A stretch of DNA of 28,955 nt, from positions 1 to 28,955 of the IMG/VR virus record IMGVR_UViG_3300042347_000438; one strand, 5' to 3'. Below the pieces are notes generated by a model that saw only the letters and a program-made list of their open reading frames with translations, ran no database searches and was not told the DNA's origin. Shown here one piece after another: positions 3,988 to 25,249 of this stretch (positions are counted from its first letter, which is position 1; each line of letters opens with the position of its first letter). Both the position numbers and the translations under genes were made by a program. This DNA comes from a virus. Lineage: Duplodnaviria; Caudoviricetes.

Positions 3988-6821
3988 TGCCGACTTTTGG
4001 AGTAAATAACTTCTCTAAGGGCCTCGACACCAAGAGGCATCTGATCGCAGCTGAAGCCGGCGAGCTCCAGGATCTCGTCAATGCGCACGTCAATCGTGGC
4101 GGTGAGATCGAGAAGCGTCGTGGCTTCATCAAGCTCGCAGAACAGCAATGTACTACCGTCGGTGCAAGGCCTCCATCTGACCCATATACAGTTCCTGGAA
4201 CGACGCTTTGTCCTGGGGACGTTGGTTATGATCCTCTGAAGCCGGAGTCTAACCTCGGTACGACATGCTACGCAGAGCCGGATGTTTTTGTCCCAGGTGA
4301 CCCCGGTTCTCCTGGCGTAACTACTTGCGTAAGCGGCAACTCCCTTCCTCCTGGCACGTTTGGCATGGAGATCACGGGGGCTGGGGTTTTTGTTTTTGGA
4401 TCCATTCCTAAGCCAACCTGGACATGGCCGGCCGGCGTTGACTACCAGCGTCTCCAGCACCCAGATGGCTTTGCCATGACGGGCGTACGCTGGTCAAGCG
4501 TCTACGGCGCAAAGCCTTTCGTCCTTGCCGAGTTTATTAACGGGGACGTCATTCCGTATTACGACGGAGTCGCAGTCGGAAGCTTTGTTAATGGCATCGT
4601 TCGTCAGTACATGGGCAACTCTGCCGGCGTAGCCGACCACTTCAAGACCCTCTTCGACACCGCCATAGCAGAGGCTCTTGCTGAAAATTCGGTTCTCAAA
4701 AACTACACGGCGTCAAAGCTGGACCCGACTACAGTTCGTCTTGTGGGCAAGCAGGGCGTCCCGTTTGAAGTAGGTACGGAAGCGGAAGCCCCGATGACTA
4801 TCGTTACTACGAAGGTACAGGAGGCAACGGATGACGTACTTGAGCGTGTTGCCGTGGCGAAGATCACCATTTCACAGGGCACAAACGGCTCGGCAAGGAC
4901 GTCAGCTGGACACAGGTGGGCTTTTTATTTTTCCGGCGAAGCATCCTGGACTCCACGCATCACCGGCATCTGGATCGACGAAGACGACACCGAGCTCATT
5001 CAGCTTGGGCCAGGCTCTCCTGGATTGAGGGCAGACTCACAGGTTGACGGGCCTGCCGCATCGGCGCCCGTGGGAAGCGGAGCCAATAACATGGCCAAGG
5101 TGATCGCTTATTACATCAACCTTCAGACGAGCACGACTGAGTATTATGCCGAATACCGCTATGGCGGACGTGAAAAAAAGGCAGATCCTGGCACGCTCAC
5201 TATTTACGCTCCACAGAGGTTTGCTGAAAGCGGGAACGACGTCACGGTTTGGTTTGAGTTTGACGCAGACCCTACGCCTTGGGCCGGTGAGTGGGCAGAA
5301 TTCGGAGTAGATACTTCCACGATCCAGCCAAGCCCGAGGAACCCGGGAAGATGGTACGCAAGATGGGCGTCTGCTCTCGCCGGTGGTTCGAGAAATTCAA
5401 TTTCGTCTTTCATGGTAGAAAGCACGGAGCTCATGAAGATGGGTGAAGATGTGTATTGGAAGACGTCCAACGCCCAGCTTGCAGATGACCTGGTTGCAGC
5501 AATCAACCAGAACCTCACGGATTTGGATCCTACACCGGATTACGTTCTTTCCGTTGAAAACACGTCTACAATCGTCGTAACAGCACGACCAGGGACGGGG
5601 GCATCATTTAACGGCCGGCGCCTCTATGTAGCAACCGAAGGATCTGTCGGGACCGTTGGAAACCAAGCCTTCGCTGGAGGTCGTGACGGCATGCCAGGGA
5701 AGCCGCAGATTACGGACTTCACGTTTGGAGGTTTTGCGGTCGGGAAAAAGCTCACGATCAATGTCACCGACTCGATGCTCACCGCCTATCCTTACCAGAT
5801 CGGCGCAAGCTGGGTTGCCGGGAAGGAGCCGAGCTTTACGTACACATACAAGTCCAAGAAATTCGCCGGCATCGATTACTCCGTCTACTTCTCCCGCCTT
5901 AATGACTGCACCCAATGGGACATCTATGACAACGGGACGGGCTTCATTAACCTTTCAAACAACTTCTCCGGGCGAGATCCTCTGACAGGCATCGGAGTCT
6001 ACCAGGATAAGCTGGCCATCTTCAGCCGAAGAAACATCCAGCTGTTCGACATCAACTACGACCCGTCGCAGGACGCCCAGGCCCAGGTCATTGACGGAAC
6101 CGGTACGATTGCGCCAGGATCCGTCGTATCCGCAAACAGCCTGGATCTGTTCTATCTGGCCGACAACGGTATCCGTTCGGTCAAGGCTCGCCAGAACACC
6201 GTTTCGGCCTACGCAGACGACATCGGCACGCCGATCGACACGCTTGTCATCGATAAGCTTGCGACGATGACCGAGGAGCAAAAGAGCAAGGCCGTAGCCA
6301 TCATCGAGCCCGTCGAGGGTCGTTATTGGCTCGTCCTTGGCGATCAGATCTACGTCCTGTCGATGTACGCAGGAAGCCAGATCTTCGCCTGGTCGAGATA
6401 CGAACCAGGCTTCAACATCGAGTGGATCAGCAACAAGGACAACCTGGTCTATTGCCGGTCCGGGGACAACATTTACGTCTACGGAGGTCTTACCGGCCGT
6501 GAGTACGACAGCTGCCCCGTCACGGTTGAGCTTCCGTACATGGACGGAGGAACCCCGCACATCTACAAGCAGTCTTCTGGCCTTGATCTTACGATCGACG
6601 GCACATGGACCGTGTCGGCCGGCTTTGATTACACGGCTCCCGACGCTCGTGACACGGTTTGCACGGCGTCCCAATCGACCTACGCCCTCGGCATCATCCC
6701 GATGAATGGCGTAGGCACGCACATCGGCATCAAAATGGTCAACCAGGCGCCAGGTCCGTCCAAGGTCAGCAACATCGTCGTCCACTTCCGTGAGCTCCAC
6801 TCCAGAAGCACGGCCGGCTGA
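3987..6821 (+). CDS. Tail tubular protein B / nozzle (stabilisation) protein with inserted domains
   Basis: 944 aa and beta-rich. The N-terminus 'NNFSKGLD...LVNAHVNRGGEIEKRRG' and C-terminal 'DLFYLADNGIRS', 'IGTPID', 'AWSRY' resemble beta-propeller nozzle proteins. Follows the adaptor. Confidence 0.7.
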   Translation: MPTFGVNNFSKGLDTKRHLIAAEAGELQDLVNAHVNRGGEIEKRRGFIKLAEQQCTTVGARPPSDPYTVPGTTLCPGDVGYDPLKPESNLGTTCYAEPDVFVPGDPGSPGVTTCVSGNSLPPGTFGMEITGAGVFVFGSIPKPTWTWPAGVDYQRLQHPDGFAMTGVRWSSVYGAKPFVLAEFINGDVIPYYDGVAVGSFVNGIVRQYMGNSAGVADHFKTLFDTAIAEALAENSVLKNYTASKLDPTTVRLVGKQGVPFEVGTEAEAPMTIVTTKVQEATDDVLERVAVAKITISQGTNGSARTSAGHRWAFYFSGEASWTPRITGIWIDEDDTELIQLGPGSPGLRADSQVDGPAASAPVGSGANNMAKVIAYYINLQTSTTEYYAEYRYGGREKKADPGTLTIYAPQRFAESGNDVTVWFEFDADPTPWAGEWAEFGVDTSTIQPSPRNPGRWYARWASALAGGSRNSISSFMVESTELMKMGEDVYWKTSNAQLADDLVAAINQNLTDLDPTPDYVLSVENTSTIVVTARPGTGASFNGRRLYVATEGSVGTVGNQAFAGGRDGMPGKPQITDFTFGGFAVGKKLTINVTDSMLTAYPYQIGASWVAGKEPSFTYTYKSKKFAGIDYSVYFSRLNDCTQWDIYDNGTGFINLSNNFSGRDPLTGIGVYQDKLAIFSRRNIQLFDINYDPSQDAQAQVIDGTGTIAPGSVVSANSLDLFYLADNGIRSVKARQNTVSAYADDIGTPIDTLVIDKLATMTEEQKSKAVAIIEPVEGRYWLVLGDQIYVLSMYAGSQIFAWSRYEPGFNIEWISNKDNLVYCRSGDNIYVYGGLTGREYDSCPVTVELPYMDGGTPHIYKQSSGLDLTIDGTWTVSAGFDYTAPDARDTVCTASQSTYALGIIPMNGVGTHIGIKMVNQAPGPSKVSNIVVHFRELHSRSTAG

Positions 6822-7399
6822 TGTATTTCCGTGAAATAAACCACGCCGACGTGGCGTTTGTCGCAGAAAATCTGCGAATTTCAGACCAGAAAGAGGTTTT
6901 TGCCACACGATGGACGGAAAGTGGAGACGATCTCGCTTCGGCCATCCTGTCTTACGGTGATTTTGGGTGGATCGCCTGTGCCGACGACGGGACGCCCGTG
7001 TCCGCTTTCGGCGCCGTGCCCATGTGGAACGGAGTTTGGTCTGTTTGGATGTTCGCCACGGACAGATGGCCGGAAGTTTCGATCTCCGTGACCAGGTTCA
7101 TCAAGAAGATCATGACTCCTGCGCTTGAGGAGTCCGGATACCATCGTGCCGAGTGCAAATCGCTCGCAGAAAACACGACGTCACATCGATGGCTTGAAAT
7201 GCTTGGCGCCTCCAAAGAGTCGGAGATCACAAACTACGGAAGGAACGGCGAGACGTTCTACACTTTCAGCTGGATTAGACCGGTAAGTCGGACACACTTG
7301 GATCCATGTGTGCACCATCTGGAGACGGCGGCGCAGCTCAAGCCAGAGCTGACGAAGCAGCTCGACAGCAGCGGATCCGAGAAGGCACCGCTGCAATAG
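6821..7399 (+). CDS. GNAT-fold / T7 gp13-like virion assembly protein
   Basis: 'NLRISDQKEV', 'VWMFATD' and 'SHRWLEMLGA' motifs, placed between the nozzle and internal virion genes. The 3' end overlaps the next ORF by 94 nt. Confidence 0.65.
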   Translation: MYFREINHADVAFVAENLRISDQKEVFATRWTESGDDLASAILSYGDFGWIACADDGTPVSAFGAVPMWNGVWSVWMFATDRWPEVSISVTRFIKKIMTPALEESGYHRAECKSLAENTTSHRWLEMLGASKESEITNYGRNGETFYTFSWIRPVSRTHLDPCVHHLETAAQLKPELTKQLDSSGSEKAPLQ

Positions 7400-7884
7400 A
7401 CAAACAATTTGCCGGTTTTGACGACAATTACTTCAAGCAGAGGGAAAACGCCTTCATCAAACAGGCCACCCCGCTTCTGAATAATGCCTTCACGGGTGCC
7501 ACCCAGAGCGCAGAAATGGCCCTGGCCGCAAAAGGCATGACTGACTCCAGCAATGCAGCCAACGTCGCCGCAGGACTCCAGGGCAACTACAACGCCAAAG
7601 CCGCCGGCATCGCAAGCTCTGCCCTGGATCAAGCCAACCAGCTCCGCAATACGGTTGCAGAAAACCGCAATCAGCTCGTAGCCCAGCTCAACGGAGGCGA
7701 ACAGGCCTTCCAGGCCGGCCGAAACGCAATGAATAAGGCTACCAGCCTTGCCGGCCAACTGAACACCAACCCCCTTGCCGGCATCATCACCGGTGGCATC
7801 GGTGCGTATGGAGCCGCCGAGCAGGGCGCAAGATACTCCAAGGAGGCCAACGCCCGTGGAGGCGCCGGCCTGTTTGGCTTCTGA
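7306..7884 (+). CDS. Putative internal virion (ejection) protein
   Basis: A/Q/N/G-rich helical 192-aa protein starting MC, with a Gly-rich hydrophobic C-terminus. Position matches ejection proteins. Confidence 0.6.
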   Translation: MCAPSGDGGAAQARADEAARQQRIREGTAAIDKQFAGFDDNYFKQRENAFIKQATPLLNNAFTGATQSAEMALAAKGMTDSSNAANVAAGLQGNYNAKAAGIASSALDQANQLRNTVAENRNQLVAQLNGGEQAFQAGRNAMNKATSLAGQLNTNPLAGIITGGIGAYGAAEQGARYSKEANARGGAGLFGF

Positions 7885-10377: not shown

Positions 10378-13300
10378 ATGGCCAAAGACATTAACGAAAT
10401 CATTTCCATGGGCACCCCCATGGAGAACGATCAAACCGCAGGATCTCCATGGATGCCTGGATCAAGTGTTTCTGCCGCAAACCTTGAAGACGGCCAGGAT
10501 CTTGTCATCTCGAAGGGCGGGAAGCTGCTTCGTGTAAAGTACAACAAGGCCACCGGGAAGCTTCAGCACACCGATGAAAAGATGGAGCCAATGACTCCTG
10601 CCGGTGGAAGCGGATACGGAGCATACAATGTTCCGATGATGCCGGCTATGGCTCAGAAGGTGACTTCGATTGATCCTTCTGAGATCGAGGCCTTTGCCAC
10701 GGGCAACTCTGCGCTCGAACAGTTTGGCAAGTCTGCCGCACGTGCCGCCCCCTCTGCTATCGCCGGGGCCGGTGGCTTCATGCTTGGCATGGAAGCCGGA
10801 GCTCCGTTTGTTGGCGTTCCTGTCGTTGGTCCCGCCATTCCGTTCGTTACCGGCCTTGCCGGATCCATGATGGCTGCTGGTGGCACCCAAGCTGCCCTTG
10901 ACTCGGCCGGCTGGCTTCAGCCCGGAGATGCCGAGCGTGAAGCTATCAATCAGCTTCAAAATCCGAATGCCACGATTGCCGGAAATTTCGCCCCGACGCT
11001 CCTGTCTTTCCGTCCTTCCGCAACTATCCTCAAACAGGCCGCAGGGCTTGAAGGTGCCATGGCTCAGAAGGCTGCGCTTGGAACCATGGCCAAGGGCGGT
11101 CTCCTAAACACCGGCATTGCTTATGGCAGCAACATGGCTCACGCAGCCGTCCATGGAGCTCAGAGCACGGATCGTCTTACCGCCTTCGGCAGATCTCTTT
11201 TGCCTGGAGCCGACATTGAACAGGAATGGGGCGGTTCTTTTGGCGAGCACATGGGTGGCATCGCAAAGGAATTCGCCCTCGGCGCCGGCGTCCTCCACAA
11301 GCCGTGGCTTGCCGGTACTCCGTTCCACAACCTTGCCGCCAAGATCGGTGGCAAGCCGCAGAACATGGTCACTTTCACGGGCGCACCTACGTACAACGCC
11401 AGGGTCGCCCAGATGGCTCACGTCACGGCAAGCATGCAAGCAGCGGCCCAGCGCCGTTCCCAGCAGGAAGCCGCCCAGCTTGAGGGGGTTGACGTAGACG
11501 CAGCACGAGAAGCTCCGGTATTCAACGCCGGTCTTAATGCAAAAGAAAGGGCCGGCATCGATAAGATCAAGTCCATGCTGACCGAGGCCTGGAACCAAAA
11601 GGTGATCAGCAAAGAGCAACATGATGTTGCGCAGACCATCACGGACACGCTTGGCCGTGAGATGCTCAAGCACATTGAGCTAACCCAGATCGGAGGAAAT
11701 GCAGATGTTCTCGGAAAGTCTGAACCGAGCAAAACTGATGCAAACGCCCAGGCCGCAAAGCAGACCAGGGCTCTCCTTAATTCTGTGACGGTTTTTGCAA
11801 GAGCGATCGAGACCGGTCGTTTTCATGATACGTTTATTCATGAAATCAGCCACCCTGCCTTTGAGAGCCTTTCAAAGGATCAGCAGCGCCGTGTGTTTGA
11901 GGACATGGTTCGTGAGCGAGTCCGGGCGAGAAGCGAAAGCCGTGTTCTTGACACGGTTCTGAACATCATGGGGATCCGCAATGACAACGGAGGCAACACC
12001 TCCGATTGGCACTTCAAGTCCCATAAGTTTAGCGAGCGTGACATGCTTTTGATACTCCGTGAGCTCCGCAGCTCCGGTATTGAAACCAGGGATAAGACCG
12101 GCCGTGAGATCTTCGCACTAAATAAAGACGACGGAACATACCGCCTTAATCCCAACTTCTTCGACGGACAGACGCTTAGTGAAAACATCTGGCACACGAA
12201 ACGACTTAACCGTCTTGAAAGCGTCCGTGAATTCTTCACGGAGGAGATGGCGAAGGGTATCCTTGCCCGTGGTAAGTATGACGTGAAGTGGGGCGCCATT
12301 AAGAACAACAAGATCCGCAACTTCATCATTTCCACCTACCATGGCATGGTTGCGGCGCTTGAGCGTGTCATGGGCAAGCGTGCGGCCGTTGATCACATCA
12401 TTGACCAGATCACGAAGGGCCACTTTAAGAACGTAACCAGGACCGGCACCGGGGAGATTGCGCCGGCAGAAGCCAGAACCATGGCAGATGGTCGTGTCAT
12501 TGACGTAACGACAAAGAGGACGGACGCACATCTCCAAACCCTCAAGAAGGGTCTCGGAGAGCTCCAAGCAAAGGAACCTGGCCTTTACAGGGCTAAGTAT
12601 GCCCATCGAATTCAGCAGATCGGCGACATGCTCTTTGATAGCGAGCAACAAGACGCTGCATCGGCTGAAGCTGTTGAAGCCCAGGTAGAAAGCCAGGCTC
12701 CGCAGCCTCGCCTTAGCGAAGACGACGCAAGCCCCGGCCTTCCCCGTGACGCCAAGGAAGCCCTCAAGAAGCTCGGCATCAAGGACACCGTGATCGGCAA
12801 CGTGGTGCGCCACTCCACGATCGGACACATCGAGTCTGACTATCCGGTTATCACTTCCGGCGAACAAGCTGCGCACGTATTCCGAAGCACGGCCCAGGCC
12901 ACCCAGGAAAGCATGCAAGTCCTGGTCACGGACAAGGACGGCCGTCCGCTTGAGATCTACCGACACACCATGAGCGAGCCTGGATCATCCCAGCTCTCTC
13001 CGATGATCATGCTGTCACAGGCTCTCGGCGTGAAGGGAGCCAAGAACATCTGGATCACCCACAACCATCCGTCCGAGACGTTTAGTTTCTCAAGTGCGGA
13101 CGAGATCGCCTACGACAACACCAAGAGGACGCTCAAGAACACGGGCATCAAGCTGGCCGGCTTCCTTGCGATCGCCGGCAAGCGCTTCGCTCACGTCGGC
13201 CCCGGAACCATGGGGCACGTTACCGAAAATAACGCCATCCCGGACCGCACCGGCGGCCAGACCCATCGAATTCCCATCGTTGAACGTCGTTTCTCGATCC

Positions 13301-16300
13301 CACGTGGAGGACCGGAAGACCACCTGGATACGCAAAGCGGACACAACGAGCTGGGCCAGCGCCTACTCATCAAGCGACTTCTTTCAGACAAGCCTGGCGT
13401 CATCTTCCTCGACCGAAACAGCATGGCCGTAGGAAAGCAGGAGATCAGCATCGAGAAGATGCAGAAGCTTGGTCACACCGGCGTCCGCAACCTACTTGGC
13501 GCCTTCGACCGATCTGGCGCAACCAACATGATCGTGAGCGTCGGAGACGGGTCCATCCCGATCGACGTCCGTGAGCTCGCAGCAAAGAACGTCACCAACA
13601 TGGTGGCCCAGGTCAAGGGCTACGGAATGGAGCTCGGCGTCAAGGCCGTGCTGACGAATGACGGAGACGCAAGAAGCCCGAACACCATACTCAAGACGCC
13701 GCATCACGGCGATCGAAGCGAAGGATTTAAGTCTGAAGACGCCCAGGATGCCGTGTTTGATCGTGGCGAAGACGAAACCCGTGTCGGTGTCGGCAAGATC
13801 AAGCCGCTTCATCGTGCGCCTAACACGCCCTTCCCGATGGTAGCGGACAAGCTCAAGGAATTCGGCATTACCTCCGGATACCTAAATCAGTTCTCCGAGC
13901 ACGCCATCGTCGGCGAGGTCAAGACCGGCGTCACCGAAGTCCGCACGGCCGGCGACGTCGCATCTCTGATGCACGACTACGCCGGCACGCTCGCCCAGGG
14001 GCAGACGATGATCTTGATCGTCGGCGCCGACGGCAAGCCCGTCCAGGTCGGTCTGCACATGGTCGATAAGTCGCAGATGACGGGGAACAACGACATCATC
14101 AAGCCCATGTGGGGTGTCCTCGCCGGCCAGGCCGTATCTACGCCTGGAGCCAAGGAGGCATGGTTCGTCCGCATCAATAACGACCTACGACCCAATCAGC
14201 TCGAAAACCCGATCACCGATACCGCCGTCGAAAGCGAAACGTCCCTCAAGAACCTTCTCGAAGGTTCCGGAATTCGTTACCGTGGCGTGGTCATGATGGC
14301 CGGCCGGAATTATTCCTCCATGGAATACCAGGACGGAGTCCAGCGCCCGGACATGGGGGCGTACAAGTTTGACGTAAATACGGTCAAACCTATGCCGATC
14401 CAGGTCAAGCCCCCCACCGGCACGATCCCGCTTACCGAGCGTCGTTACTCCACACGCAGTCAGATCCCGTACGAAGCCGGCGTTCAGATGCCGGACAGAA
14501 CGGAGCCTTCCGAGAACGCATCCTGGGGACGCACCGAGGCGGGAACGCAGAAGAAGCTCAACGAGCTGCTTGGCGGTCAGCCTGGCGTCATGTTCCGCAC
14601 GAGCTCCGGCAAGGTCACGGGCGTATTCCCGATGACCATCGACGAGATGACCAACATCCGCAACTCCCCCGCCCAGAGGAGCCTCCTGGCTATGATGGAT
14701 CGAGGCGGTGTAAATTGGGGTTTCGTCTCCGTCGGCGACAACGACTCAAGCACGCCGGAGGTCCGCAAGGCCACCTCCAACATCAACGCATTCTTGAAGC
14801 AGATGGGCTTGAAGGTCATCGACACCTACGGCCGATCCAAGATGCCGATCGACTCTGATCCGGAAAACCTCAGCATTCACGATTGGAAGTCCGAGGACTC
14901 GGATACGGTTGACCTAAATGATGGTCTCCTTGACATGTCGCATCAGTATCGCCCCGGAGCCCAGCAGATGCCTGGCTTTGAGAGCGATGGAAATCTTTTC
15001 AAGGGCAAGGATGGCTACGTCCTTGGAACCATTAGCACCGACGACCTTGCCGGCGGAACGATCACCGGCGAACACGGAAACAACGTGTTCATGCAGCCGG
15101 GACGGAAGGTATCCATCGTTCTTCCGGAAGGTGTCGAGTTTGACCGTTATGAAAAAGGCCAGGGCAAAGGTGGGTACGGCCGGGCCCACGCTGGGCGTGC
15201 TGGCGGCAACAAGCTCCAGGAAATCTTTGACAAGCTTGGGATGACTCCGGATGAGGCGATCAAGTTCATCACGGAGAATTTCAAGCACGGGTTTATCAAC
15301 CCGAAGAACCCGGAAGTAATCGAGCTCAAGCTTCCTTTTGCTGGAAACTTCAAGCTTGGCAATGGAGTCAATGATCCGATGGGGCTCAAGATGATGATCA
15401 GAATTGTCCCTAAGGTCGTTGATAAGGACGGGAACCTGGTTGCAACCGTACAAAACATCATCCCGGACAAGTATTCACGATCTGTCCGTGAGCAGCATCC
15501 GAGGTTCGGCTCTCGCTTGATGCCGGAACAAACAAAGGCACTTTTTAAGCCAAGAGAATTTTCCGGAGAGCATCCTGGAGACGCAAACATTACGCAGGAC
15601 AAGAGCATCAACCAGCATGAATACTTTTCTGGATCTCTTGAAACCCGCCCAACCATGGTCGAGCGCAAGGGTTACACGGAAAAGGAAGGCTTCCAGAAGG
15701 ACAAGGACTACCAGATGTGGTCCGAAGACGACTCGGCGTCATACAACGGCCGTGCGGAAAGCCTGTTCAAGAATGACCGTGTGGTCGGGCCGGAGGAGAT
15801 CAAGGGCGGTTTCCTTGCCTGGATGAACAGCACCAAGGAAATGGCCAAGGAGCACCTTTTCGAGCTCCCCTGGCCTGGCAATGGCGAACGTGGAACCTTT
15901 GAGCAAGACGAGGCGTTCAACGCCGGCCGTCGAGCCCAGCACGCAACGATCGACCAGGTCCTTGCCAAGCTGACCAAGCAGAAGGGCTTCAACCCGATGA
16001 CCCTCAAGCCTGGCATGCTGAAGCGTGTCATTGCCTCTTCCCAGGAAGCCACGCTCCAGGCCTTCAAGGAGCTCGTCCGGGTCGCCAGCAACGTCCATGA
16101 ATTCGTCATCGACCAGCCGGCAGACATCGATGGCAACAGGGAGTGGGGACACGTCAAGCGTTACCACGCCAGCATCATCAAACAGGTCCAGCTTGGCATG
16201 GAGGCCGGCGTGATCTCGAAGCAGCACGGCCTTGAGATCATCGAGATGGCCAACGAAGTTCGCAGCCGCACCTTCACGGCATTCGACAACTATCGCAAGG

Positions 16301-19300
16301 AAAACGGCGGCGATCGGGAAAACTACTCCGAAGACTCCGAAAACATGCGTATCCCTGGAGGCGCCAGGGACGAAGCGATGAAGCGACGCCCGAAGCAGCC
16401 GATCAAGACCTACCTAAACATCGGCCACGGCGACGTGGAGGGCGAATACGGAAACGCACGATTGAAGGGCAATTTCAAGCCGGAGGATACTTTCCTCTAC
16501 ACCTACAACCACGGCAACGGCCGGTTCAACTACCAGAACATCGCAGAGATGGCCCAAGCCGCCGGCGTCGAGGCCAAGAACGCCGACGACTTCGCCCATG
16601 GCATGGGTGGCAACGGCATTGAAAACAACCTACGCCTGGGCCGGAATGACACCGGAACCACCGGTCGCATTGAGATCGATCACGAAGCCCAGCGGATCCT
16701 CGTTTCTGCCGGATCCGGCAAGGGCAAGCTCGACCCGGAATACACGTCGCCCAAGGAGCTCATGAGCCGAAGCGACGCACTCAAGGAGATCCGTGACAAC
16801 GTCGAGCGCCTCCAGGCCGAAGGCAAGCTGCCGAAGGGCTACAAGGTCGAAGGATACGGTTTTGCCAGGGAAAACCGTTTCAAGGAAAACTTCCAGGAGC
16901 GCTTCTCCGAGGATGACGGCGAGAACATGCGTATCCCTGGCGGTGCTCGTGACAACTTCCAGCGTCAATCTGCCAAGGTTAAGCGCCAGAAGCCGATCCG
17001 CTTCTGGACCGACGTCGGCCACGCCGACCGGACTGACGCAGAGGGCGAAGAAAACACCTACCTCTGGTATGCGACAAAAGACGGAGAGATCCAGGTCATT
17101 AGCGCCGACGAGCTCCGTAACTCGCAGACCCCGGAGGGCTATCAGCTCATCGACTCGTCCGACATCCCGACCCACTCGGATTGGGAGACGCACCTTGAGA
17201 TGGGCAACATCCAAGGTGACTACGGCAAACAGCCCATCATGGAGCTCCCGCACGGCCGTATCGATGACCGTGGCGACGTGACCAGGATCTCGTTCATGGA
17301 CGCCAAGAACCGTGAATTCTCCAGCCGTCCGTCCGACTACGAGCACAACCGTGAGCAGATCAAGAACAAGCTCGCCGAATTCATGGGCAAGAAGGCCGAG
17401 GACATGCCCGGATACGATTTCTCCGCCGGAATGACTCCGGAGCGCTTCTCTGAAGACGCCGAAAACATGCGCAGTCCTGGAGGCGCAAGGGACGCAGCCA
17501 TGAAGCGACGCCCCGTCACGCCGGCCAGGATCAGCATGTACTACACCGACATCGGCCACCCCGAAGGTCGTTACTACAAGGCTTCCGCTGGAGTGGAGGT
17601 CAACCCGGACAGCAGCCAGCAGTACCTGTGGGCATTCAACCAGCACGGGGAATTCAACATGATCAGCGTCAAGGATCTGACGGAGCAGTATGAAGCCAAG
17701 CGCCGGCGTGGCCAGGGCCGTGGCGCAGATGGTCGCCTCATGGACCAATACAATGAGTCCGACATCACCCACTCCCAATGGATGGCCGTTACCGGGGACA
17801 AGCTTGACTTCCGTAAGGTCGGATCGGGTCGCCTGGACATCATGCCCGACGGCAAGATCCGCATGAGCTGGGCCGCTGGAAGCGAGATGGACAGCACAGA
17901 AGCACGTGAGGCCAAGGCCGAGGAGATCAAATTCAATGCCTCAACCTTCCTTAATGGAGAGGGCAAGCGTGCAGCCAGGGTTTCTCCGGACAAGATCGCC
18001 GGATACGTATGGGACTCCTCCGGATCTGGAAGCGAGCCTGGACGCTTCTCTGAAGACGCAGAAAACGGCGTGTTCCCCAACCAGAACAAGGCCAAGGGAC
18101 GCATCCCGGACGTCAGAATTCGCAACGGTGAAACGGACCTTGGAGTGGTGCTCGCCCCTGGCGAAATCCTTGACTCGAAGGGCCTTCGCATCCGCACGCA
18201 GGGTAGCCAGGCTGGACTTCATTGGGGTGAGATCGGGCACGACGAAGCGCCTTGGGATGGCGATCCGGCCGTTCGTGATGCCTTTGAGTCCGGCAATCTC
18301 CAGGACGCATTCCGTGACGCAGACAACAGCCTGTTCGCCTTTGACTCCGAAGCCGGCGAAATTGATGTCGAGTTCACCAGGGATTACGAAACTCACCTCG
18401 CTCGCTGGGGTGACGGGCCCCAGGAGTATTGGGACAGCAGGGGAGAAGATAATAAAAATTGGGGCAAGATTGACCCCAGGTACACCTACCTTGGACGCAT
18501 CGAAGTCCCCGTGATCGGCAAGGACGGAACGCTCCTTCGCCGTGGACGCATCTCCCTGGCCAAGAATTCCGCAGACGTTTCGTGGATCGACACCAGCTCC
18601 GACATGACCAGGGCAGACATGCCCCCTGGGTTGCTCCAGAAGATCCGAGAAGAAGCAACGAGACAGGCCGTCCAGGAATACTCGTATCTCGACAGATACG
18701 GTGAACCGAAGACCAAAGAACAGGCACCGAAGCCGGACCATTTCGACATCTATGGATTTGGAATGGAGTCAGAAAAGGCGCAGATGGGCTTCTCTGAAAA
18801 AGACTACGGACCGTTGAAGCTGTCCGAGGACTCGGTCGAGGGCTACCGTGAGCTCGCAGAGCGACCGATCGGCGAAGGCAAGGAAGGCCGAGACAGGCTC
18901 AACAGCATGGTCGCCCGGATGTCCGAAGACTCCGACACCGTAAGCGAACCGCCCTTCGTGCCCCCCAGCGTGGCTCCGAACAAGAGCAACCTGGAGATCG
19001 CAAAGGACATCGTTACGGCTCGTTTCTTCACCGGCATCAGCACCAAGGCCCACGAGATCGCAGCAGCGTTCCCGAACAGCCGTGCCGCCAAGGCGGTCGC
19101 CAACCTTATCCACGCCCGTGCCGGCGCCGAAGCCGGCGTCACGCAGCTGGACATGCCGACGGCCATCATGAAGGAGCGCACCAAGCGCATGAACGAATTC
19201 TTCGACATCATGTCCCCGCTTCGTAGCGAATTCGCCTCCATGACCAAGGCCGACCGTGACCTGGCTTACCGTGAGCTTGCGGACATGATCACCGGAGAGA

Positions 19301-21291
19301 TCCCGATCGACACATCGACGCCGGCCGGCCGTGCAGCCGAAGGCCTCAAGGCCCTACTCAAGTCGATGCACGAGTATCGCACCGCCGCCGGCGAAAAGCT
19401 TGGCGAGGTCGAAGATTACTTCCCGTCCGTCTACGACTCGTTCCGGATCTCCGAAGAAGCCCATCTGTTCAAGGCAGACGCCAAGCGTGCCTACATGCTT
19501 GAGCTCGCCAACGAATTCCAGGGCCAGGAGCTCGAAGACATGGCTGAAAAGAAAGCCCGTGAGCTCACCCTTTCGCACATCCGTGGCGAAGGAGAGGGTC
19601 AGTTCAAGAGCTTCTTTGAGGACGGAGCTCCGCAGATGGGGGAGAATTCCGCAAAGAGCCGTAAATTCGGAGTCGAGGCCCAGAAGATCATGAGCAAGTG
19701 GCAGATCAAGGACCCGTATCGTGTGATCTCCCGATACATCTCCGGAGCTACCAAGAGCGCAGAAGTCGTCCGTCGCCTCGGCGAAGACGGCAAGAAGTGG
19801 CGCAAGATGGTTGCGTCCATGGAGAAGGACGGCGTCGCCTACGACCGGATCGATGAGCTCCGTGACCTTCTGAAGGCATCCGTCGGCATTGGCCGGCGTG
19901 CGAACAGCAAGGCCGAACAGACCTTCATCGACATCATGGGCCTCTACACGGCCGGCTCCGTGATGGGCCGTTCGTTCATGAACAACATGTTTGAGCCCGG
20001 ATCCATGGGCATGCGTTCCGGCCATCTCGGCCTGGGCCTCCTGGCCTATGCGGAGACCTGGGGTCGCACGATCCGAAACGGAGTCAGATCCGTGACCGGC
20101 GAGCGCCTGGACAAGACGTTCTGGGAGAAGTACGCAGAGCAGATCGGCACGATCAGCGCCGACATCAACGACGCCTGGATGAACAGCCACTCCATTGAGG
20201 TCGATGGCGACCGTTCCGATCCTCGCATCAATTGGCTTACGAGCCGGGTGTACCAGGCCAACCTTCTCCAGATGACGGAAAATGCGAAGCTCCAGGCGTC
20301 TCACGCCATCGGCTTCAAGTTCCTCGTCAACCTGGCCGAGATGCAGCAGGGCAAGAGCTGGATGAACGCCCTTGACGTGACCGAGTCCGTGAAGTCCAAC
20401 CTCCGTGAGCTCGGCATCGCCGACGCAGATCATGCTGCGTTCTCCAGCTGGATGATGAGACTTAACAAGCTCAACGACGCCGGCCGTATGCGTGCCATGA
20501 CCAGCGGAGGCAAGATGTCCAAGATGCTTGAGACGGCCATGACCAAGTTCTCGATGCAGTCGTCCGTCCGTGCTAACCGTGCCCACAAGCCCGTCTTCCA
20601 GGACGGAGCAATTGGCAAGACCCTGTTCCAGCTGATGAGCTACGCTTACGCCTATGCAGCGGAGGTCAATTCACGGACGTACAGCTACGCAAAGAGCGCC
20701 CTTACGTCTGCTCCGGCCGGCAAGTCCTACGCCGTAGGTGACCGCATCCGTTTCATGGCTCCTCTGATGATGATGCCCCTCGGCATCATTGCCTTCCGTC
20801 AGATGTTCAAGCTCAAGGATGAGGTCTATCCGACCGAGTACAGCGAGAAGCACAAAAACGATCCTTGGTGGATGAAGTGGCTCAACGCCGCATCCTACGC
20901 CGGCGGTTTCGGCCCGAAGGTCGAAATGGCTACCAAGTACGTCATGCGTGATCAGCCTCCTGGCGGTCCGCTTGGACAGCTTGTCGTGGGCGGTGCTCGT
21001 GTCGCAAAGGATGCCGTCTCTAACCAGCTCCAGGGCAAGCCCCAGGACAGCGTCAAGCGACAGGCTGCAAAGGTCGCCGTACCGCCGATCAAAGCAGCTA
21101 CCGTCATCGGAGCTACCGCAGCCCACCCGGCCGCAGGAGCTGTCGCAAACCAGGTCGCAAACAGCACGCTTTGGTCCAACGCCATGACCGAAAAGCCGAA
21201 GACCGGTCCGAAGCCCCCGAAGGACGACTACCAAAAGGAGATTGATCGGGAAAACCGTATCCTTAAAAAGGAGAACGCACCTCCTAAATAA
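10378..21291 (+). CDS. Giant multidomain virion/ejection protein (polyvalent-protein-like): zincin HExxH, RadC/JAB domains, repeated unknown domain, helical C-terminal region
   Basis: Uninterrupted 3,637-aa ORF at the position of the largest ejection protein. It has Gly/Ala hydrophobic N-terminal segments, HEISH at 11839-11853, a JAB motif E...HNHPS...S..D at 12907-13101 and ten SED linker motifs. A helical C-terminal region of about 790 aa includes 'YFPSVYD'. Confidence 0.85.
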   Translation: MAKDINEIISMGTPMENDQTAGSPWMPGSSVSAANLEDGQDLVISKGGKLLRVKYNKATGKLQHTDEKMEPMTPAGGSGYGAYNVPMMPAMAQKVTSIDPSEIEAFATGNSALEQFGKSAARAAPSAIAGAGGFMLGMEAGAPFVGVPVVGPAIPFVTGLAGSMMAAGGTQAALDSAGWLQPGDAEREAINQLQNPNATIAGNFAPTLLSFRPSATILKQAAGLEGAMAQKAALGTMAKGGLLNTGIAYGSNMAHAAVHGAQSTDRLTAFGRSLLPGADIEQEWGGSFGEHMGGIAKEFALGAGVLHKPWLAGTPFHNLAAKIGGKPQNMVTFTGAPTYNARVAQMAHVTASMQAAAQRRSQQEAAQLEGVDVDAAREAPVFNAGLNAKERAGIDKIKSMLTEAWNQKVISKEQHDVAQTITDTLGREMLKHIELTQIGGNADVLGKSEPSKTDANAQAAKQTRALLNSVTVFARAIETGRFHDTFIHEISHPAFESLSKDQQRRVFEDMVRERVRARSESRVLDTVLNIMGIRNDNGGNTSDWHFKSHKFSERDMLLILRELRSSGIETRDKTGREIFALNKDDGTYRLNPNFFDGQTLSENIWHTKRLNRLESVREFFTEEMAKGILARGKYDVKWGAIKNNKIRNFIISTYHGMVAALERVMGKRAAVDHIIDQITKGHFKNVTRTGTGEIAPAEARTMADGRVIDVTTKRTDAHLQTLKKGLGELQAKEPGLYRAKYAHRIQQIGDMLFDSEQQDAASAEAVEAQVESQAPQPRLSEDDASPGLPRDAKEALKKLGIKDTVIGNVVRHSTIGHIESDYPVITSGEQAAHVFRSTAQATQESMQVLVTDKDGRPLEIYRHTMSEPGSSQLSPMIMLSQALGVKGAKNIWITHNHPSETFSFSSADEIAYDNTKRTLKNTGIKLAGFLAIAGKRFAHVGPGTMGHVTENNAIPDRTGGQTHRIPIVERRFSIPRGGPEDHLDTQSGHNELGQRLLIKRLLSDKPGVIFLDRNSMAVGKQEISIEKMQKLGHTGVRNLLGAFDRSGATNMIVSVGDGSIPIDVRELAAKNVTNMVAQVKGYGMELGVKAVLTNDGDARSPNTILKTPHHGDRSEGFKSEDAQDAVFDRGEDETRVGVGKIKPLHRAPNTPFPMVADKLKEFGITSGYLNQFSEHAIVGEVKTGVTEVRTAGDVASLMHDYAGTLAQGQTMILIVGADGKPVQVGLHMVDKSQMTGNNDIIKPMWGVLAGQAVSTPGAKEAWFVRINNDLRPNQLENPITDTAVESETSLKNLLEGSGIRYRGVVMMAGRNYSSMEYQDGVQRPDMGAYKFDVNTVKPMPIQVKPPTGTIPLTERRYSTRSQIPYEAGVQMPDRTEPSENASWGRTEAGTQKKLNELLGGQPGVMFRTSSGKVTGVFPMTIDEMTNIRNSPAQRSLLAMMDRGGVNWGFVSVGDNDSSTPEVRKATSNINAFLKQMGLKVIDTYGRSKMPIDSDPENLSIHDWKSEDSDTVDLNDGLLDMSHQYRPGAQQMPGFESDGNLFKGKDGYVLGTISTDDLAGGTITGEHGNNVFMQPGRKVSIVLPEGVEFDRYEKGQGKGGYGRAHAGRAGGNKLQEIFDKLGMTPDEAIKFITENFKHGFINPKNPEVIELKLPFAGNFKLGNGVNDPMGLKMMIRIVPKVVDKDGNLVATVQNIIPDKYSRSVREQHPRFGSRLMPEQTKALFKPREFSGEHPGDANITQDKSINQHEYFSGSLETRPTMVERKGYTEKEGFQKDKDYQMWSEDDSASYNGRAESLFKNDRVVGPEEIKGGFLAWMNSTKEMAKEHLFELPWPGNGERGTFEQDEAFNAGRRAQHATIDQVLAKLTKQKGFNPMTLKPGMLKRVIASSQEATLQAFKELVRVASNVHEFVIDQPADIDGNREWGHVKRYHASIIKQVQLGMEAGVISKQHGLEIIEMANEVRSRTFTAFDNYRKENGGDRENYSEDSENMRIPGGARDEAMKRRPKQPIKTYLNIGHGDVEGEYGNARLKGNFKPEDTFLYTYNHGNGRFNYQNIAEMAQAAGVEAKNADDFAHGMGGNGIENNLRLGRNDTGTTGRIEIDHEAQRILVSAGSGKGKLDPEYTSPKELMSRSDALKEIRDNVERLQAEGKLPKGYKVEGYGFARENRFKENFQERFSEDDGENMRIPGGARDNFQRQSAKVKRQKPIRFWTDVGHADRTDAEGEENTYLWYATKDGEIQVISADELRNSQTPEGYQLIDSSDIPTHSDWETHLEMGNIQGDYGKQPIMELPHGRIDDRGDVTRISFMDAKNREFSSRPSDYEHNREQIKNKLAEFMGKKAEDMPGYDFSAGMTPERFSEDAENMRSPGGARDAAMKRRPVTPARISMYYTDIGHPEGRYYKASAGVEVNPDSSQQYLWAFNQHGEFNMISVKDLTEQYEAKRRRGQGRGADGRLMDQYNESDITHSQWMAVTGDKLDFRKVGSGRLDIMPDGKIRMSWAAGSEMDSTEAREAKAEEIKFNASTFLNGEGKRAARVSPDKIAGYVWDSSGSGSEPGRFSEDAENGVFPNQNKAKGRIPDVRIRNGETDLGVVLAPGEILDSKGLRIRTQGSQAGLHWGEIGHDEAPWDGDPAVRDAFESGNLQDAFRDADNSLFAFDSEAGEIDVEFTRDYETHLARWGDGPQEYWDSRGEDNKNWGKIDPRYTYLGRIEVPVIGKDGTLLRRGRISLAKNSADVSWIDTSSDMTRADMPPGLLQKIREEATRQAVQEYSYLDRYGEPKTKEQAPKPDHFDIYGFGMESEKAQMGFSEKDYGPLKLSEDSVEGYRELAERPIGEGKEGRDRLNSMVARMSEDSDTVSEPPFVPPSVAPNKSNLEIAKDIVTARFFTGISTKAHEIAAAFPNSRAAKAVANLIHARAGAEAGVTQLDMPTAIMKERTKRMNEFFDIMSPLRSEFASMTKADRDLAYRELADMITGEIPIDTSTPAGRAAEGLKALLKSMHEYRTAAGEKLGEVEDYFPSVYDSFRISEEAHLFKADAKRAYMLELANEFQGQELEDMAEKKARELTLSHIRGEGEGQFKSFFEDGAPQMGENSAKSRKFGVEAQKIMSKWQIKDPYRVISRYISGATKSAEVVRRLGEDGKKWRKMVASMEKDGVAYDRIDELRDLLKASVGIGRRANSKAEQTFIDIMGLYTAGSVMGRSFMNNMFEPGSMGMRSGHLGLGLLAYAETWGRTIRNGVRSVTGERLDKTFWEKYAEQIGTISADINDAWMNSHSIEVDGDRSDPRINWLTSRVYQANLLQMTENAKLQASHAIGFKFLVNLAEMQQGKSWMNALDVTESVKSNLRELGIADADHAAFSSWMMRLNKLNDAGRMRAMTSGGKMSKMLETAMTKFSMQSSVRANRAHKPVFQDGAIGKTLFQLMSYAYAYAAEVNSRTYSYAKSALTSAPAGKSYAVGDRIRFMAPLMMMPLGIIAFRQMFKLKDEVYPTEYSEKHKNDPWWMKWLNAASYAGGFGPKVEMATKYVMRDQPPGGPLGQLVVGGARVAKDAVSNQLQGKPQDSVKRQAAKVAVPPIKAATVIGATAAHPAAGAVANQVANSTLWSNAMTEKPKTGPKPPKDDYQKEIDRENRILKKENAPPK
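16327..18822 (+). repeat. Four tandem diverged protein-level repeats (about 180-260 aa) inside the giant gene
   Basis: Each unit has [YW]xx[IV]GH, L[YWF]x[YAF], a second His (FAH/TH), GR[IL] and a terminal [GI]Yx[FW]. Units begin at SED motifs at 16327, 16906, 17449 and 18049. The first three start with ENMRxPGGARD. Confidence 0.85.
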
Positions 21292-23693: not shown

Positions 23694-23765
23694 GCCATGG
23701 CAAAACAACCGACGGCCACCGGCGTGCACACGCCCGGCAAGGCACCCATTTCCTCCAAAACCGAC

Positions 23766-24620
23766 ATGATCAAAATCATCAAGGCCGACGAGCGCCTCAA
23801 GCTCGTACCCAAAGTGAACATCGTCCTGTTCGGCCCCTCCGGGGTCGGCAAGACCACCCTCGCCAGGACGCTCGACCCGAAGCGCACCCTGTTCGTGGAT
23901 CTCGAAGCCGGCACCCTGGCCATCCAGGATTGGCCGGGCGACGTCCTCGACGTCCGTGCCGCCTCTCTGGCCACCGGCGCCCATCCGTGGGAAATCGCCC
24001 GTGCCCTGGCCCTGTACATCGGTGGACCCGATCCGTCCGATGCGAACGGCAACTACTCGGCCGGCGTCTACGCCCAGGTCCAGGAGATGTTCTCCTCCAT
24101 CGACCTCAAGAAGTACGACACCATCTTCGTGGACTCGATTACCGTGGCCTCCCGTGAGTGCTTCAAGTGGTCGCAGATCCAGCCCGAAGCCATGAGCGAG
24201 AAGACCGGCAAGCCCGACACCCGTGCGGCCTACGGCCTCCTCGGCCGTGAGATGATCCGCTGGGTCACCCACCTCCAGCACAGTCACCTGTCCGTGATCA
24301 TGGTCGGCATCCTCGACTCCGAGAAGGACGATCTGAACCGGGTCACCTGGAACCCCCAGCTCGAAGGCTCGAAGACCGGCCGTGAGATCCCCGGCATCTT
24401 CGACCAGGTCATGACGCTCCAGAGCTTCAAGACCGACGACGGCGAGATGTATCGTGCCCTCGTCTGCCAGCAACAGAACCCCTGGAGCTACCCGGCCAAG
24501 GATCGCTCCGGCCGGCTTGAGCTCCTCGAAGCTCCGGACCTCGGCGCCATCCTCAAGAAGATCCGTGAGGGCAAGCGTCTCGACACGTCCATCACCACCA
24601 CTCTGCCGAACAAGCAGTAA
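23766..24620 (+). CDS. AAA_24 / Sak4-like P-loop ATPase (recombinase)
   Basis: Walker A GPSGVGKT, 'FVDLEAG', Walker B 'TIFVDSIT' and C-terminal 'AKDRSG'. The ORF track start is 23697, but ATG 23766 (MIKII), preceded by AACCGAC, is preferred. Confidence 0.85.
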   Translation: MIKIIKADERLKLVPKVNIVLFGPSGVGKTTLARTLDPKRTLFVDLEAGTLAIQDWPGDVLDVRAASLATGAHPWEIARALALYIGGPDPSDANGNYSAGVYAQVQEMFSSIDLKKYDTIFVDSITVASRECFKWSQIQPEAMSEKTGKPDTRAAYGLLGREMIRWVTHLQHSHLSVIMVGILDSEKDDLNRVTWNPQLEGSKTGREIPGIFDQVMTLQSFKTDDGEMYRALVCQQQNPWSYPAKDRSGRLELLEAPDLGAILKKIREGKRLDTSITTTLPNKQ

Positions 24621-24643
24621 CTAACCCAAAAAAACAAGAACAC

Positions 24644-25249
24644 ATGTTCAACACCACCAGCGGTCAGCCCGACCCGAAACAGGGCAACACCCTCATCCCC
24701 AACGCCACCCTGGCGAAGGCGGTCGTGAAGGTCCAGAACATCGGCAACTCCAAGCGCACGGGCGCCGAGTACGCCAAGCTCGACCTCGTGATCTGCGAGG
24801 GCGAGTACACCAACCGCCACATCTTCACCGTCGTGATGAACCCGCACGACAAGGATGGGGACAAGGCGGCCGGAGCCAAGATGGGAGAGAAGAACCTCTG
24901 CCACATGCTCGAAGGCGCCGGCCTCATGGATCACACCGATCCGGCCAGCACCGCACAGTTCGACGGCGCCTCCTTCCAGGACGTGCTGACCGCCCTGGAC
25001 GGCAAGGTCGTGGCGATCAAGATCCGTGTCGCTCCTGGCAAGGACGGCTACGAAGACAAGAACGAGGTCGCACAGTACCTGTCGCCGGTCCAGGCGTCCG
25101 GCTCCAAGCGTCTCTGGGAACAGCTGAACGGCTCCACCCCTGTCACGCATGTGCAGAAGCCGGCGTTCAACGTCCAGCCGAAGCCCGTCGCCACCCCCGC
25201 CCCGAAGCCCAGCTCGGCTCCGGCCTGGCTCAAGCGTCCTAACGGCTAA
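24644..25249 (+). CDS. Putative single-stranded DNA-binding protein (DUF669-like)
   Basis: Follows the Sak4-like ATPase. It has an OB-like beta pattern, 'GEYTNRHIF', 'GYEDKNEV' and a Pro/Ala tail ending PAWL. Confidence 0.65.
   Translation: MFNTTSGQPDPKQGNTLIPNATLAKAVVKVQNIGNSKRTGAEYAKLDLVICEGEYTNRHIFTVVMNPHDKDGDKAAGAKMGEKNLCHMLEGAGLMDHTDPASTAQFDGASFQDVLTALDGKVVAIKIRVAPGKDGYEDKNEVAQYLSPVQASGSKRLWEQLNGSTPVTHVQKPAFNVQPKPVATPAPKPSSAPAWLKRPNG

Follow-up and report, generated by a model that had tools for sequence, protein, structure and literature searches.

The window analysed here is the whole 28,955-nucleotide stretch of IMG/VR virus record IMGVR_UViG_3300042347_000438 (positions 1 to 28,955; Duplodnaviria; Caudoviricetes). 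On its plus strand, an open reading frame (ORF) at 10378-21291 encodes a giant ejection-type protein of 3,637 amino acids. It is the final gene of a podovirus head/tail/ejection operon, as indicated by ORF calling, by its neighbours and by a gene order that is the same in Microcystis phage Mae-Yong1326-1. By its architecture and context, this is a phage polyvalent protein. It is punctuated by a short recurrent peptide, hereafter called the tag, which reads Ser-Glu-Asp (SED) in the window.

A preliminary description of this DNA had listed ten SED motifs with their contexts and spacings, and our recount gave exactly the same values. The motifs begin at amino acids 780, 1119, 1505, 1782, 1984, 2177, 2358, 2558, 2816 and 2849 (tags 1 to 10), while only 1.05 are expected from composition (Poisson P 1.7e-7). 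SED ranks first among the 2,461 tripeptides observed (about 1e-3 when corrected for the 8,000 possible ones), the ten sites being not wholly independent because three of them open paralogous modules. None was found in the 19 other window ORFs (5,596 amino acids; 1.26 expected), so a comparison of motif counts with expectation, which had been proposed as a check, sets the giant protein apart. As had also been noticed, its two ends (the first 779 and the last 786 residues) lack the motif.

The tag across close homologues

Close homologues were collected by a search with the C-terminal domain. It yielded 44 proteins, and 20 of them, at 72-83% identity, were used; with the window protein they form the set of 21 proteins to which the following counts refer. 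Four of the 20 homologues carry SEDD (8-9 copies each) and sixteen carry SEGD (10-13 copies each), and among their 218 strict tags the two forms are never mixed in one protein (0/20). The tag is uniform inside each protein, and all copies switch together between lineages. In the whole set there are 231 matches against 4.3 expected. Seven joints can be aligned in all 21 proteins, and there S-E-[G/D] occupies 143 of 147 sites between variable flanks, the four exceptions being SEAD (twice), SADD and SEND, with Ser present at every one of the 147. A large hydrophobic residue (Φ) stands one or two positions before this Ser in 139 of 140 distinct contexts. In the window itself the fourth residue of the tag is Ser or Ala at 7 of 10 sites; comparison with the nearest kin shows that codons were deleted, inserted or substituted to give this state. 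The idea of a recurrent joint motif kept in homologues was thus borne out, but the motif is not fixed as SED; it is better written as Φ(x)S-E-[G/D]-D and switches protein-wide.

The individual tags, all on the plus strand, differ in their conservation. Tags 2 (13732..13740), 4 (15721..15729), 5 (16327..16335) and 10 (18922..18930, the start of the C-terminal domain) are present in 21/21 proteins, tags 3 (14890..14898) and 8 (18049..18057) in 20/21, and tag 1 (12715..12723), at the boundary between the N-terminal block and module F, is S-E-[G/D] in 19/21. At the same JAB end as tag 2, an FK-SQRD-type tag is found in more distant kin. Tag 6 (16906..16914) is the place where two GNAT-like modules (weak Pfam matches, E about 0.01), not found in the window, are inserted in 16/16 SEGD proteins. 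Tag 7 (17449..17457) reads SQDD in three close relatives, and tag 9 (18823..18831), only 33 residues from tag 10, is decayed in 13/21 proteins. The tag class forms a single clade on the tree of the C-terminal domain (97/95) and, weakly, on the trees of modules F, C and E. A homologue search anchored on the predicted peptidase returned 6 proteins, all known already, and therefore no further SEDD lineage with its peptidase.

Codon usage was analysed at 70 joints of seven genes with DNA available. Each gene spells its tags with 4-10 distinct DNA words, and silent positions are identical only 1.05-1.36 times as often as by chance. Because synonymous codons vary while residues are kept, the tag is selected as a peptide, and both the codon variation and the mainly protein-level conservation of the preliminary description hold. 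Some preference is visible, with TCC at 39/70 joints and GAA at 53/70, in comparison to 38 and 48 of 128 off-joint Ser-Glu pairs, both being enriched at joints; tags 7 and 8 share 23/24 nucleotides, which indicates some copying. A fixed DNA recombination site, as in an integron- or shufflon-type cassette array, was rejected on the same number of words per gene and near-chance silent identity. A dedicated recombinase had no convincing match in the 20 window ORFs (a partial genome) or in 75 ORFs of relatives.

Modules between the tags

Cutting the 21 proteins at the tag gave discrete sequence clusters, which we treat as modules, and the tags lie at module joints. At these joints whole modules have been gained, lost, reordered or exchanged; module K, for instance, occurs in 11/21 proteins at three different positions in the module order. 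Homologues gathered through the C-terminal region therefore show what had been anticipated for them, namely variable module content with joints that stay at tags. The clearest exchange concerns module A (15721..16326, plus strand, as are all modules), a predicted helical bundle that moved between tag classes according to the model, trees and sliding identity. Four SEGD proteins contain module A of the window type, bordered by SEGD at either end (approximately unbiased test, p-AU 6e-6 against one SEDD clade), and in the three SEGD proteins checked its core is 55-100% identical to the window per 20-residue block. One SEDD protein (L004:12335-12370) and one SEGD protein (L003:7713-7750) share a short insert that follows the opening tag of module E, this tag being the resident one in each.

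Two AlphaFold2 models together span all ten tags. Their clearer signal is that confident predicted domains end just before tags 2, 5, 6, 7, 8 and 9. Seven tags lie in stretches with a predicted local distance difference test score (pLDDT) under 50 and three at the edges of such stretches, and nine are coil with one at a helix end. This is modest evidence, as about one third of all residues are under 50 and three tags are near model ends. The models thus suggest, in line with the earlier expectation, that the motifs are placed at the edges of folded domains and not within them.

Module F (12715..13731) is a RadC-like JAB domain followed by a second subdomain (Pfam PF04002, 40.5 bits against a cut-off of 22.1; Foldseek match to 2qlc, template modelling (TM) score 0.85). 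It combines the JAB fold with a metal site of Glu, HxH, Ser and Asp, which is intact in 21/21 proteins, as is the HNHPS motif. Module C (13732..14889) is its paralogue without the metal-binding histidines (24% identity, E 6e-18), so the JAB duplicate pair described earlier is real. Module C comes directly after the active JAB and shows good conservation, with a median of 83% in the SEGD proteins; both JAB copies of more distant kin keep the HNHP motif. Module Q (14890..15720) is a hypervariable slot with six sequence clusters among the 21 proteins and no match in Pfam or PDB. A His-containing pattern in this slot (window 14890-15720; L003:3171-3950; L008:4274-5059) resembles that of BECR-fold RNases, a putative likeness for which the libraries gave no match. 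Modules D, G and R (16327..18048) are three paralogous alpha/beta domains with invariant His residues, a common leader and no PDB sequence match, while module E (18049..18822) is related to them weakly, by clustering and an hhalign probability of 16%. Of the four repeats first reported, three are therefore clear paralogues and the fourth is a weak match. The C-terminal domain, module B (18922..21291), is 72-83% identical in 20 homologues and was found in 604 representatives at E <= 0.001. The conserved chassis that had been proposed can be upheld for this C-terminal part (>=75% among SEGD proteins) but not for the N-terminal part and the peptidase, which count among its most variable regions (medians 42% and 40%).

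Profiles of the peptidase, of D/G/R and of slot Q had no significant match among PDB sequences, and ESM Atlas offered nothing usable for modules G and A. VIA-align covered module A only and returned generic helical bundles (Z up to 9.5). A gelsolin/villin likeness of the A-D-G-R-E model (Foldseek E about 1e-5) was dismissed as repeat-on-repeat noise, with TM under 0.2 and a root-mean-square deviation over 20.

Upstream of tag 1, at 11530..12447 on the plus strand, lies a predicted zincin-like metallopeptidase (MPTase), our candidate reader of the tag, with HExxH at amino acids 488-492 and a later Glu at 618. HExxH with the downstream Glu, described as an MPTase signature by Iyer et al. 2017 (PMC5512222), is present in 21/21 proteins of the clade, a homologous domain occurs in distant kin, and the model puts the two in helices at model residues 97-112 and 232-246. 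The peptidases of P0009 and P0013 are 39% identical; such a swap or diversification between near-identical proteins is more usual for an arms-race effector.

Gene order and more distant kin

The window contains a podovirus structural operon. It runs through the end of the portal gene, a scaffold-like gene, the major capsid protein, an adaptor and a nozzle-sized gene, then a GNAT gene, two small genes and a 628-residue gene, and finally the giant ORF. There is a 94-nucleotide overlap between the GNAT gene (6821-7399; PHROG 308, internal virion protein) and the ejection gene that follows (7306-7884). On the 3' side of the giant ORF come Sak4, SSB, a helicase and a Cas4-like nuclease; the Sak4-like annealing protein and SSB (23697..25249, plus strand; PHROG 124, E 1e-42, and PHROG 378) are candidate machinery for module exchange.

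The giant protein is encoded among the virion genes of a terminase-portal phage, and it joins unrelated domains in one polypeptide, namely the MPTase motif, two JABs, a helical module and three paralogous alpha/beta modules. Its gene stands at the end of the core-protein operon, the position of T7 gp16 or a P22-type ejection protein, and from this gene order the protein is likely delivered with the phage DNA. Like the largest ejection gene of the T7 gp14-16 and P22 systems, it comes last, after the nozzle, GNAT and small ejection genes, and a small gene of one relative matches Pfam T7_gp14. Outside JAB, it has no match in Pfam or PHROG, known ejection-protein families included. The nearest cultured relative found, Mae-Yong1326-1 (OP028995.1), has a 42% identical capsid protein and a 2,441-residue giant protein with a related C-terminal domain and two HExxH motifs, but this protein has neither a repeated SE[G/D] tag nor any of the window's modules. 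GTDB genomes gave no relative, so no host could be assigned.

Among more distant loci, 16/48 were left out, mostly ones with little upstream DNA. Twenty kin with an MPTase of the same clade, most of them without JAB, have a related pattern, Φ(x)S-x-R-D, with the hydrophobic residue at the same one-or-two spacing as in SE[G/D] tags. It was seen 44 times against 5.1 expected (three duplicate loci being left out of this count) and stands before the C-terminal domain in 13/20 and after JAB in 4/4, the background being 3.7% per 60-residue window. Another 18 kin, nearly all with other HExxxH or HExxH peptidases, use tags of two other types, E-P-G-x-x-Y at 4.1 times chance and L-F-N-R at 15.5 times chance; the former precedes shared modules at 37/38 module starts in 13 proteins (background 2.9%), and the latter lies near the peptidase. 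No tag was seen in 11 kin without HExxH or JAB, with 0/7 before the shared GNAT-like module. The tag family thus appears to follow the peptidase clade among distant kin, although these ratios are descriptive, as the kin are not independent and the data used for counting had also served to fit the patterns.

Three further observations concern these distant giant genes. On two separate contigs (L016:3090-12304 and L019:2787-12391) the gene occupies two overlapping frames, and in both the change of frame comes at a common position, a Lys-rich stretch not far behind the second JAB module with its tag; a programmed -1 frameshift or a natural split of the gene may explain this. The giant protein of kin that lack protease motifs (L037-L045, L047, L049) contains long low-complexity stretches rich in Pro and Ala. 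In some protease-less kin (L045:2730-10175 and L039:3119-12445) the C-terminal domain is the sole match among module profiles, and their cargo is therefore wholly different.

Candidate readers of the tag

As all copies change together from lineage to lineage, the tag may well be a cut signal for the protein's own zinc protease. To this favoured reading, in which the HExxH metallopeptidase would read the tag and free eight folded modules, we attach an even chance. The giant protein would be packaged, as gene context suggests, and the peptidase, whose activity is predicted from its motif, would cut each tag in the head or after injection, so that the modules come free of both the N-terminal block and the C-terminal chassis; cleavage itself and the choice of this peptidase as reader are likewise inferred. 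Speculatively, the cut might fall just before the Ser, given the hydrophobic residue one or two positions ahead of it. Modules would move by recombination between similar joints or leaders, probably via the phage Sak4, and selection would retain the resident tag after each exchange.

This reading is supported by the unmixed tags of the homologues, the joints kept between variable flanks, the module traffic, the varied synonymous codons and the match between tag family and peptidase clade. A further point in its favour is that no free-standing peptidase was found at Pfam E <= 0.001 in 75 ORFs (a rough gene call on parts of three relatives). Several results weigh against it. The zincin fold, in which a three-stranded sheet precedes the HExxH helix, was not recovered: Foldseek found no zincin, the best profile match was CapP (E 0.72), that in Pfam was ATLF (E 0.06), and pLDDT in the region is under 50-60. 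Under an unchanged tag the MPTase is the least conserved catalytic part, with 33-100% identity among SEGD proteins (median 40%); in P0005 and P0008 the MPTases are 34% identical, as against 90-99% for modules F, C, E and B, with 99% for B, the C-terminal domain. The MPTase tree requires two changes of tag class (one clade is not rejected, p-AU 0.127), and only 5 columns separate the classes in the MPTase as opposed to 13 in module F. Such columns did not cluster in the peptidase. A tripeptide screen of 96 distant representatives (proteins under 1,500 residues left out), 30 of them with HExxH, found no clean repeated tag, and the patterns that were found in distant kin have the limits given above. 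Moreover, N4 vRNAP, ArdC and TraC1 bear MPTases and are, according to Iyer et al. (PMC5512222), packaged or transferred uncut. A complex prediction of peptidase, zinc and the first joint peptide scored 0.00 and was counted neither for nor against.

The swapping of the peptidase under an unchanged tag would be easier to understand if the tag were an uncut handle, a repeated signal for binding, modification or threading while the protein is packaged or ejected. Its reader would then be the conserved C-terminal domain, a host factor or a different virion protein, for instance the neighbouring GNAT. The tree of the C-terminal domain fits the tag class best, and a Ser at 147/147 aligned sites is what a modification site would show. 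We nevertheless find such a handle somewhat unlikely, since the tag is missing from kin that have the C-terminal domain but lack a protease motif, its family varies with the peptidase clade among proteins with the same C-terminal domain, and one tag per joint, with a redundant copy decaying in 13/21 proteins, suits a cut site well. The cutting might instead be done by another enzyme. The intact JAB of module F, with its metal site kept in 21/21 proteins and its inactive partner in module C, resembles JAMM protease pairs, and active/inactive pairs of JAMM type appear among weak Foldseek matches; JAB modules also occur in both lineages with Glu-centred tags, while a host protease acting after injection would account for the indifference to peptidase swaps. 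This alternative is unlikely in our estimation, because the related S-x-R-D tag occurs in kin that have the same MPTase, whether or not they carry JAB, because identity within JAB itself drops to 38% among the SEGD proteins, and because RadC-type JABs have been argued to lack a peptide groove (PMC5512222, section 16).

The remaining explanations fare worse. The tag could be a DNA-level relic without any role in the protein, a stretch of short homology that was duplicated along with the modules and whose copies gene conversion or site-specific recombination has kept alike; the near-identity of tags 7 and 8, the enrichment of TCC and GAA, the paralogy of D, G and R and the presence of Sak4 would fit. 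Silent positions are free to vary under fixed residues, however, unrelated modules are bounded by the tag as well, the class change hit all 8-13 joints, and the window's own shift arose by differing mutation types, all of which makes the relic quite improbable. Chance recurrence was considered because Ser, Glu and Asp are common and the tripeptide was picked after the fact, but the Poisson probability, the 231 matches and conservation at homologous joints rule it out for practical purposes. Maturation by a prohead protease of the T4 gp21 type involves a free-standing head protease and one motif shared by scaffold, capsid and further proteins of the head; neither SED nor SEG occurs in the 18 window ORFs checked, scaffold and capsid among these, and a shared motif of this kind was rejected.

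A broader proposal, possible yet considerably more tentative than cleavage by the protein's own peptidase, is that each lineage's protease and its 8-13 tags evolve as a matched set (SxRD, SEGD, SEDD and SED[S/A], with E-P-G-x-x-Y serving another protease). Tag-flanked domains would then be plug-in injected effectors, and tag specificity would restrict which cassettes and proteases can be exchanged.

Self-processing by MPTases was proposed for polyvalent proteins by Iyer et al. 2017 (PMC5512222). Their giant multidomain proteins in virion context, with MPTase and RadC/JAB, resemble the one described here, whose kin add GNAT and weak ART-PolyVal matches; the word 'linker' is absent from the main text of that paper and no cleavage motif was found in the portions consulted, whereas the window family has a specific tag at every joint, switching protein-wide, and most of its modules have no Pfam family. 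The 2,811-residue polyvalent protein gp47 of phi24B was found in virions and its ejection was proposed, yet in the sections of the preprint consulted its metallopeptidase is assigned a proposed cell-wall role and no gp47 processing is reported (bioRxiv 10.64898/2026.04.10.717836). The phage P1 virion proteins DdrB, which has an MPTase, and DarA are both reported to be proteolytically processed, but these are single processing events, with no clear N-terminal signal at the DarA site and no repeated tag described in the portions consulted (PMC5512222, PMC9024508). If cleavage is true, an embedded protease with repeated sites releasing domains would be analogous to RNA-virus polyproteins (an analogy from PMC5512222, section 34), with the differences that the protease is unrelated, that modules here are swapped between lineages, and that processing is putative. 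No account of a junction tag of this kind, or of its changing in concert, came up in our literature search, which did not extend to subscription papers or to the external supplements of PMC5512222.

Self-processing of polyvalent proteins has thus been a proposal since 2017, with no mapped sites found in the literature. The family described here offers a single protein with ten predicted sites, along with naturally occurring variants of specificity and, as natural controls, kin that lack protease and tag. For eight modules, seven of which match no family, the tag marks the exact boundaries, and these modules probably enter the cell as infection begins. If the favoured reading is true, the family would give bacteriophages their counterpart to the polyprotein processing of RNA viruses, and sequence-specific proteases could be obtained from it.

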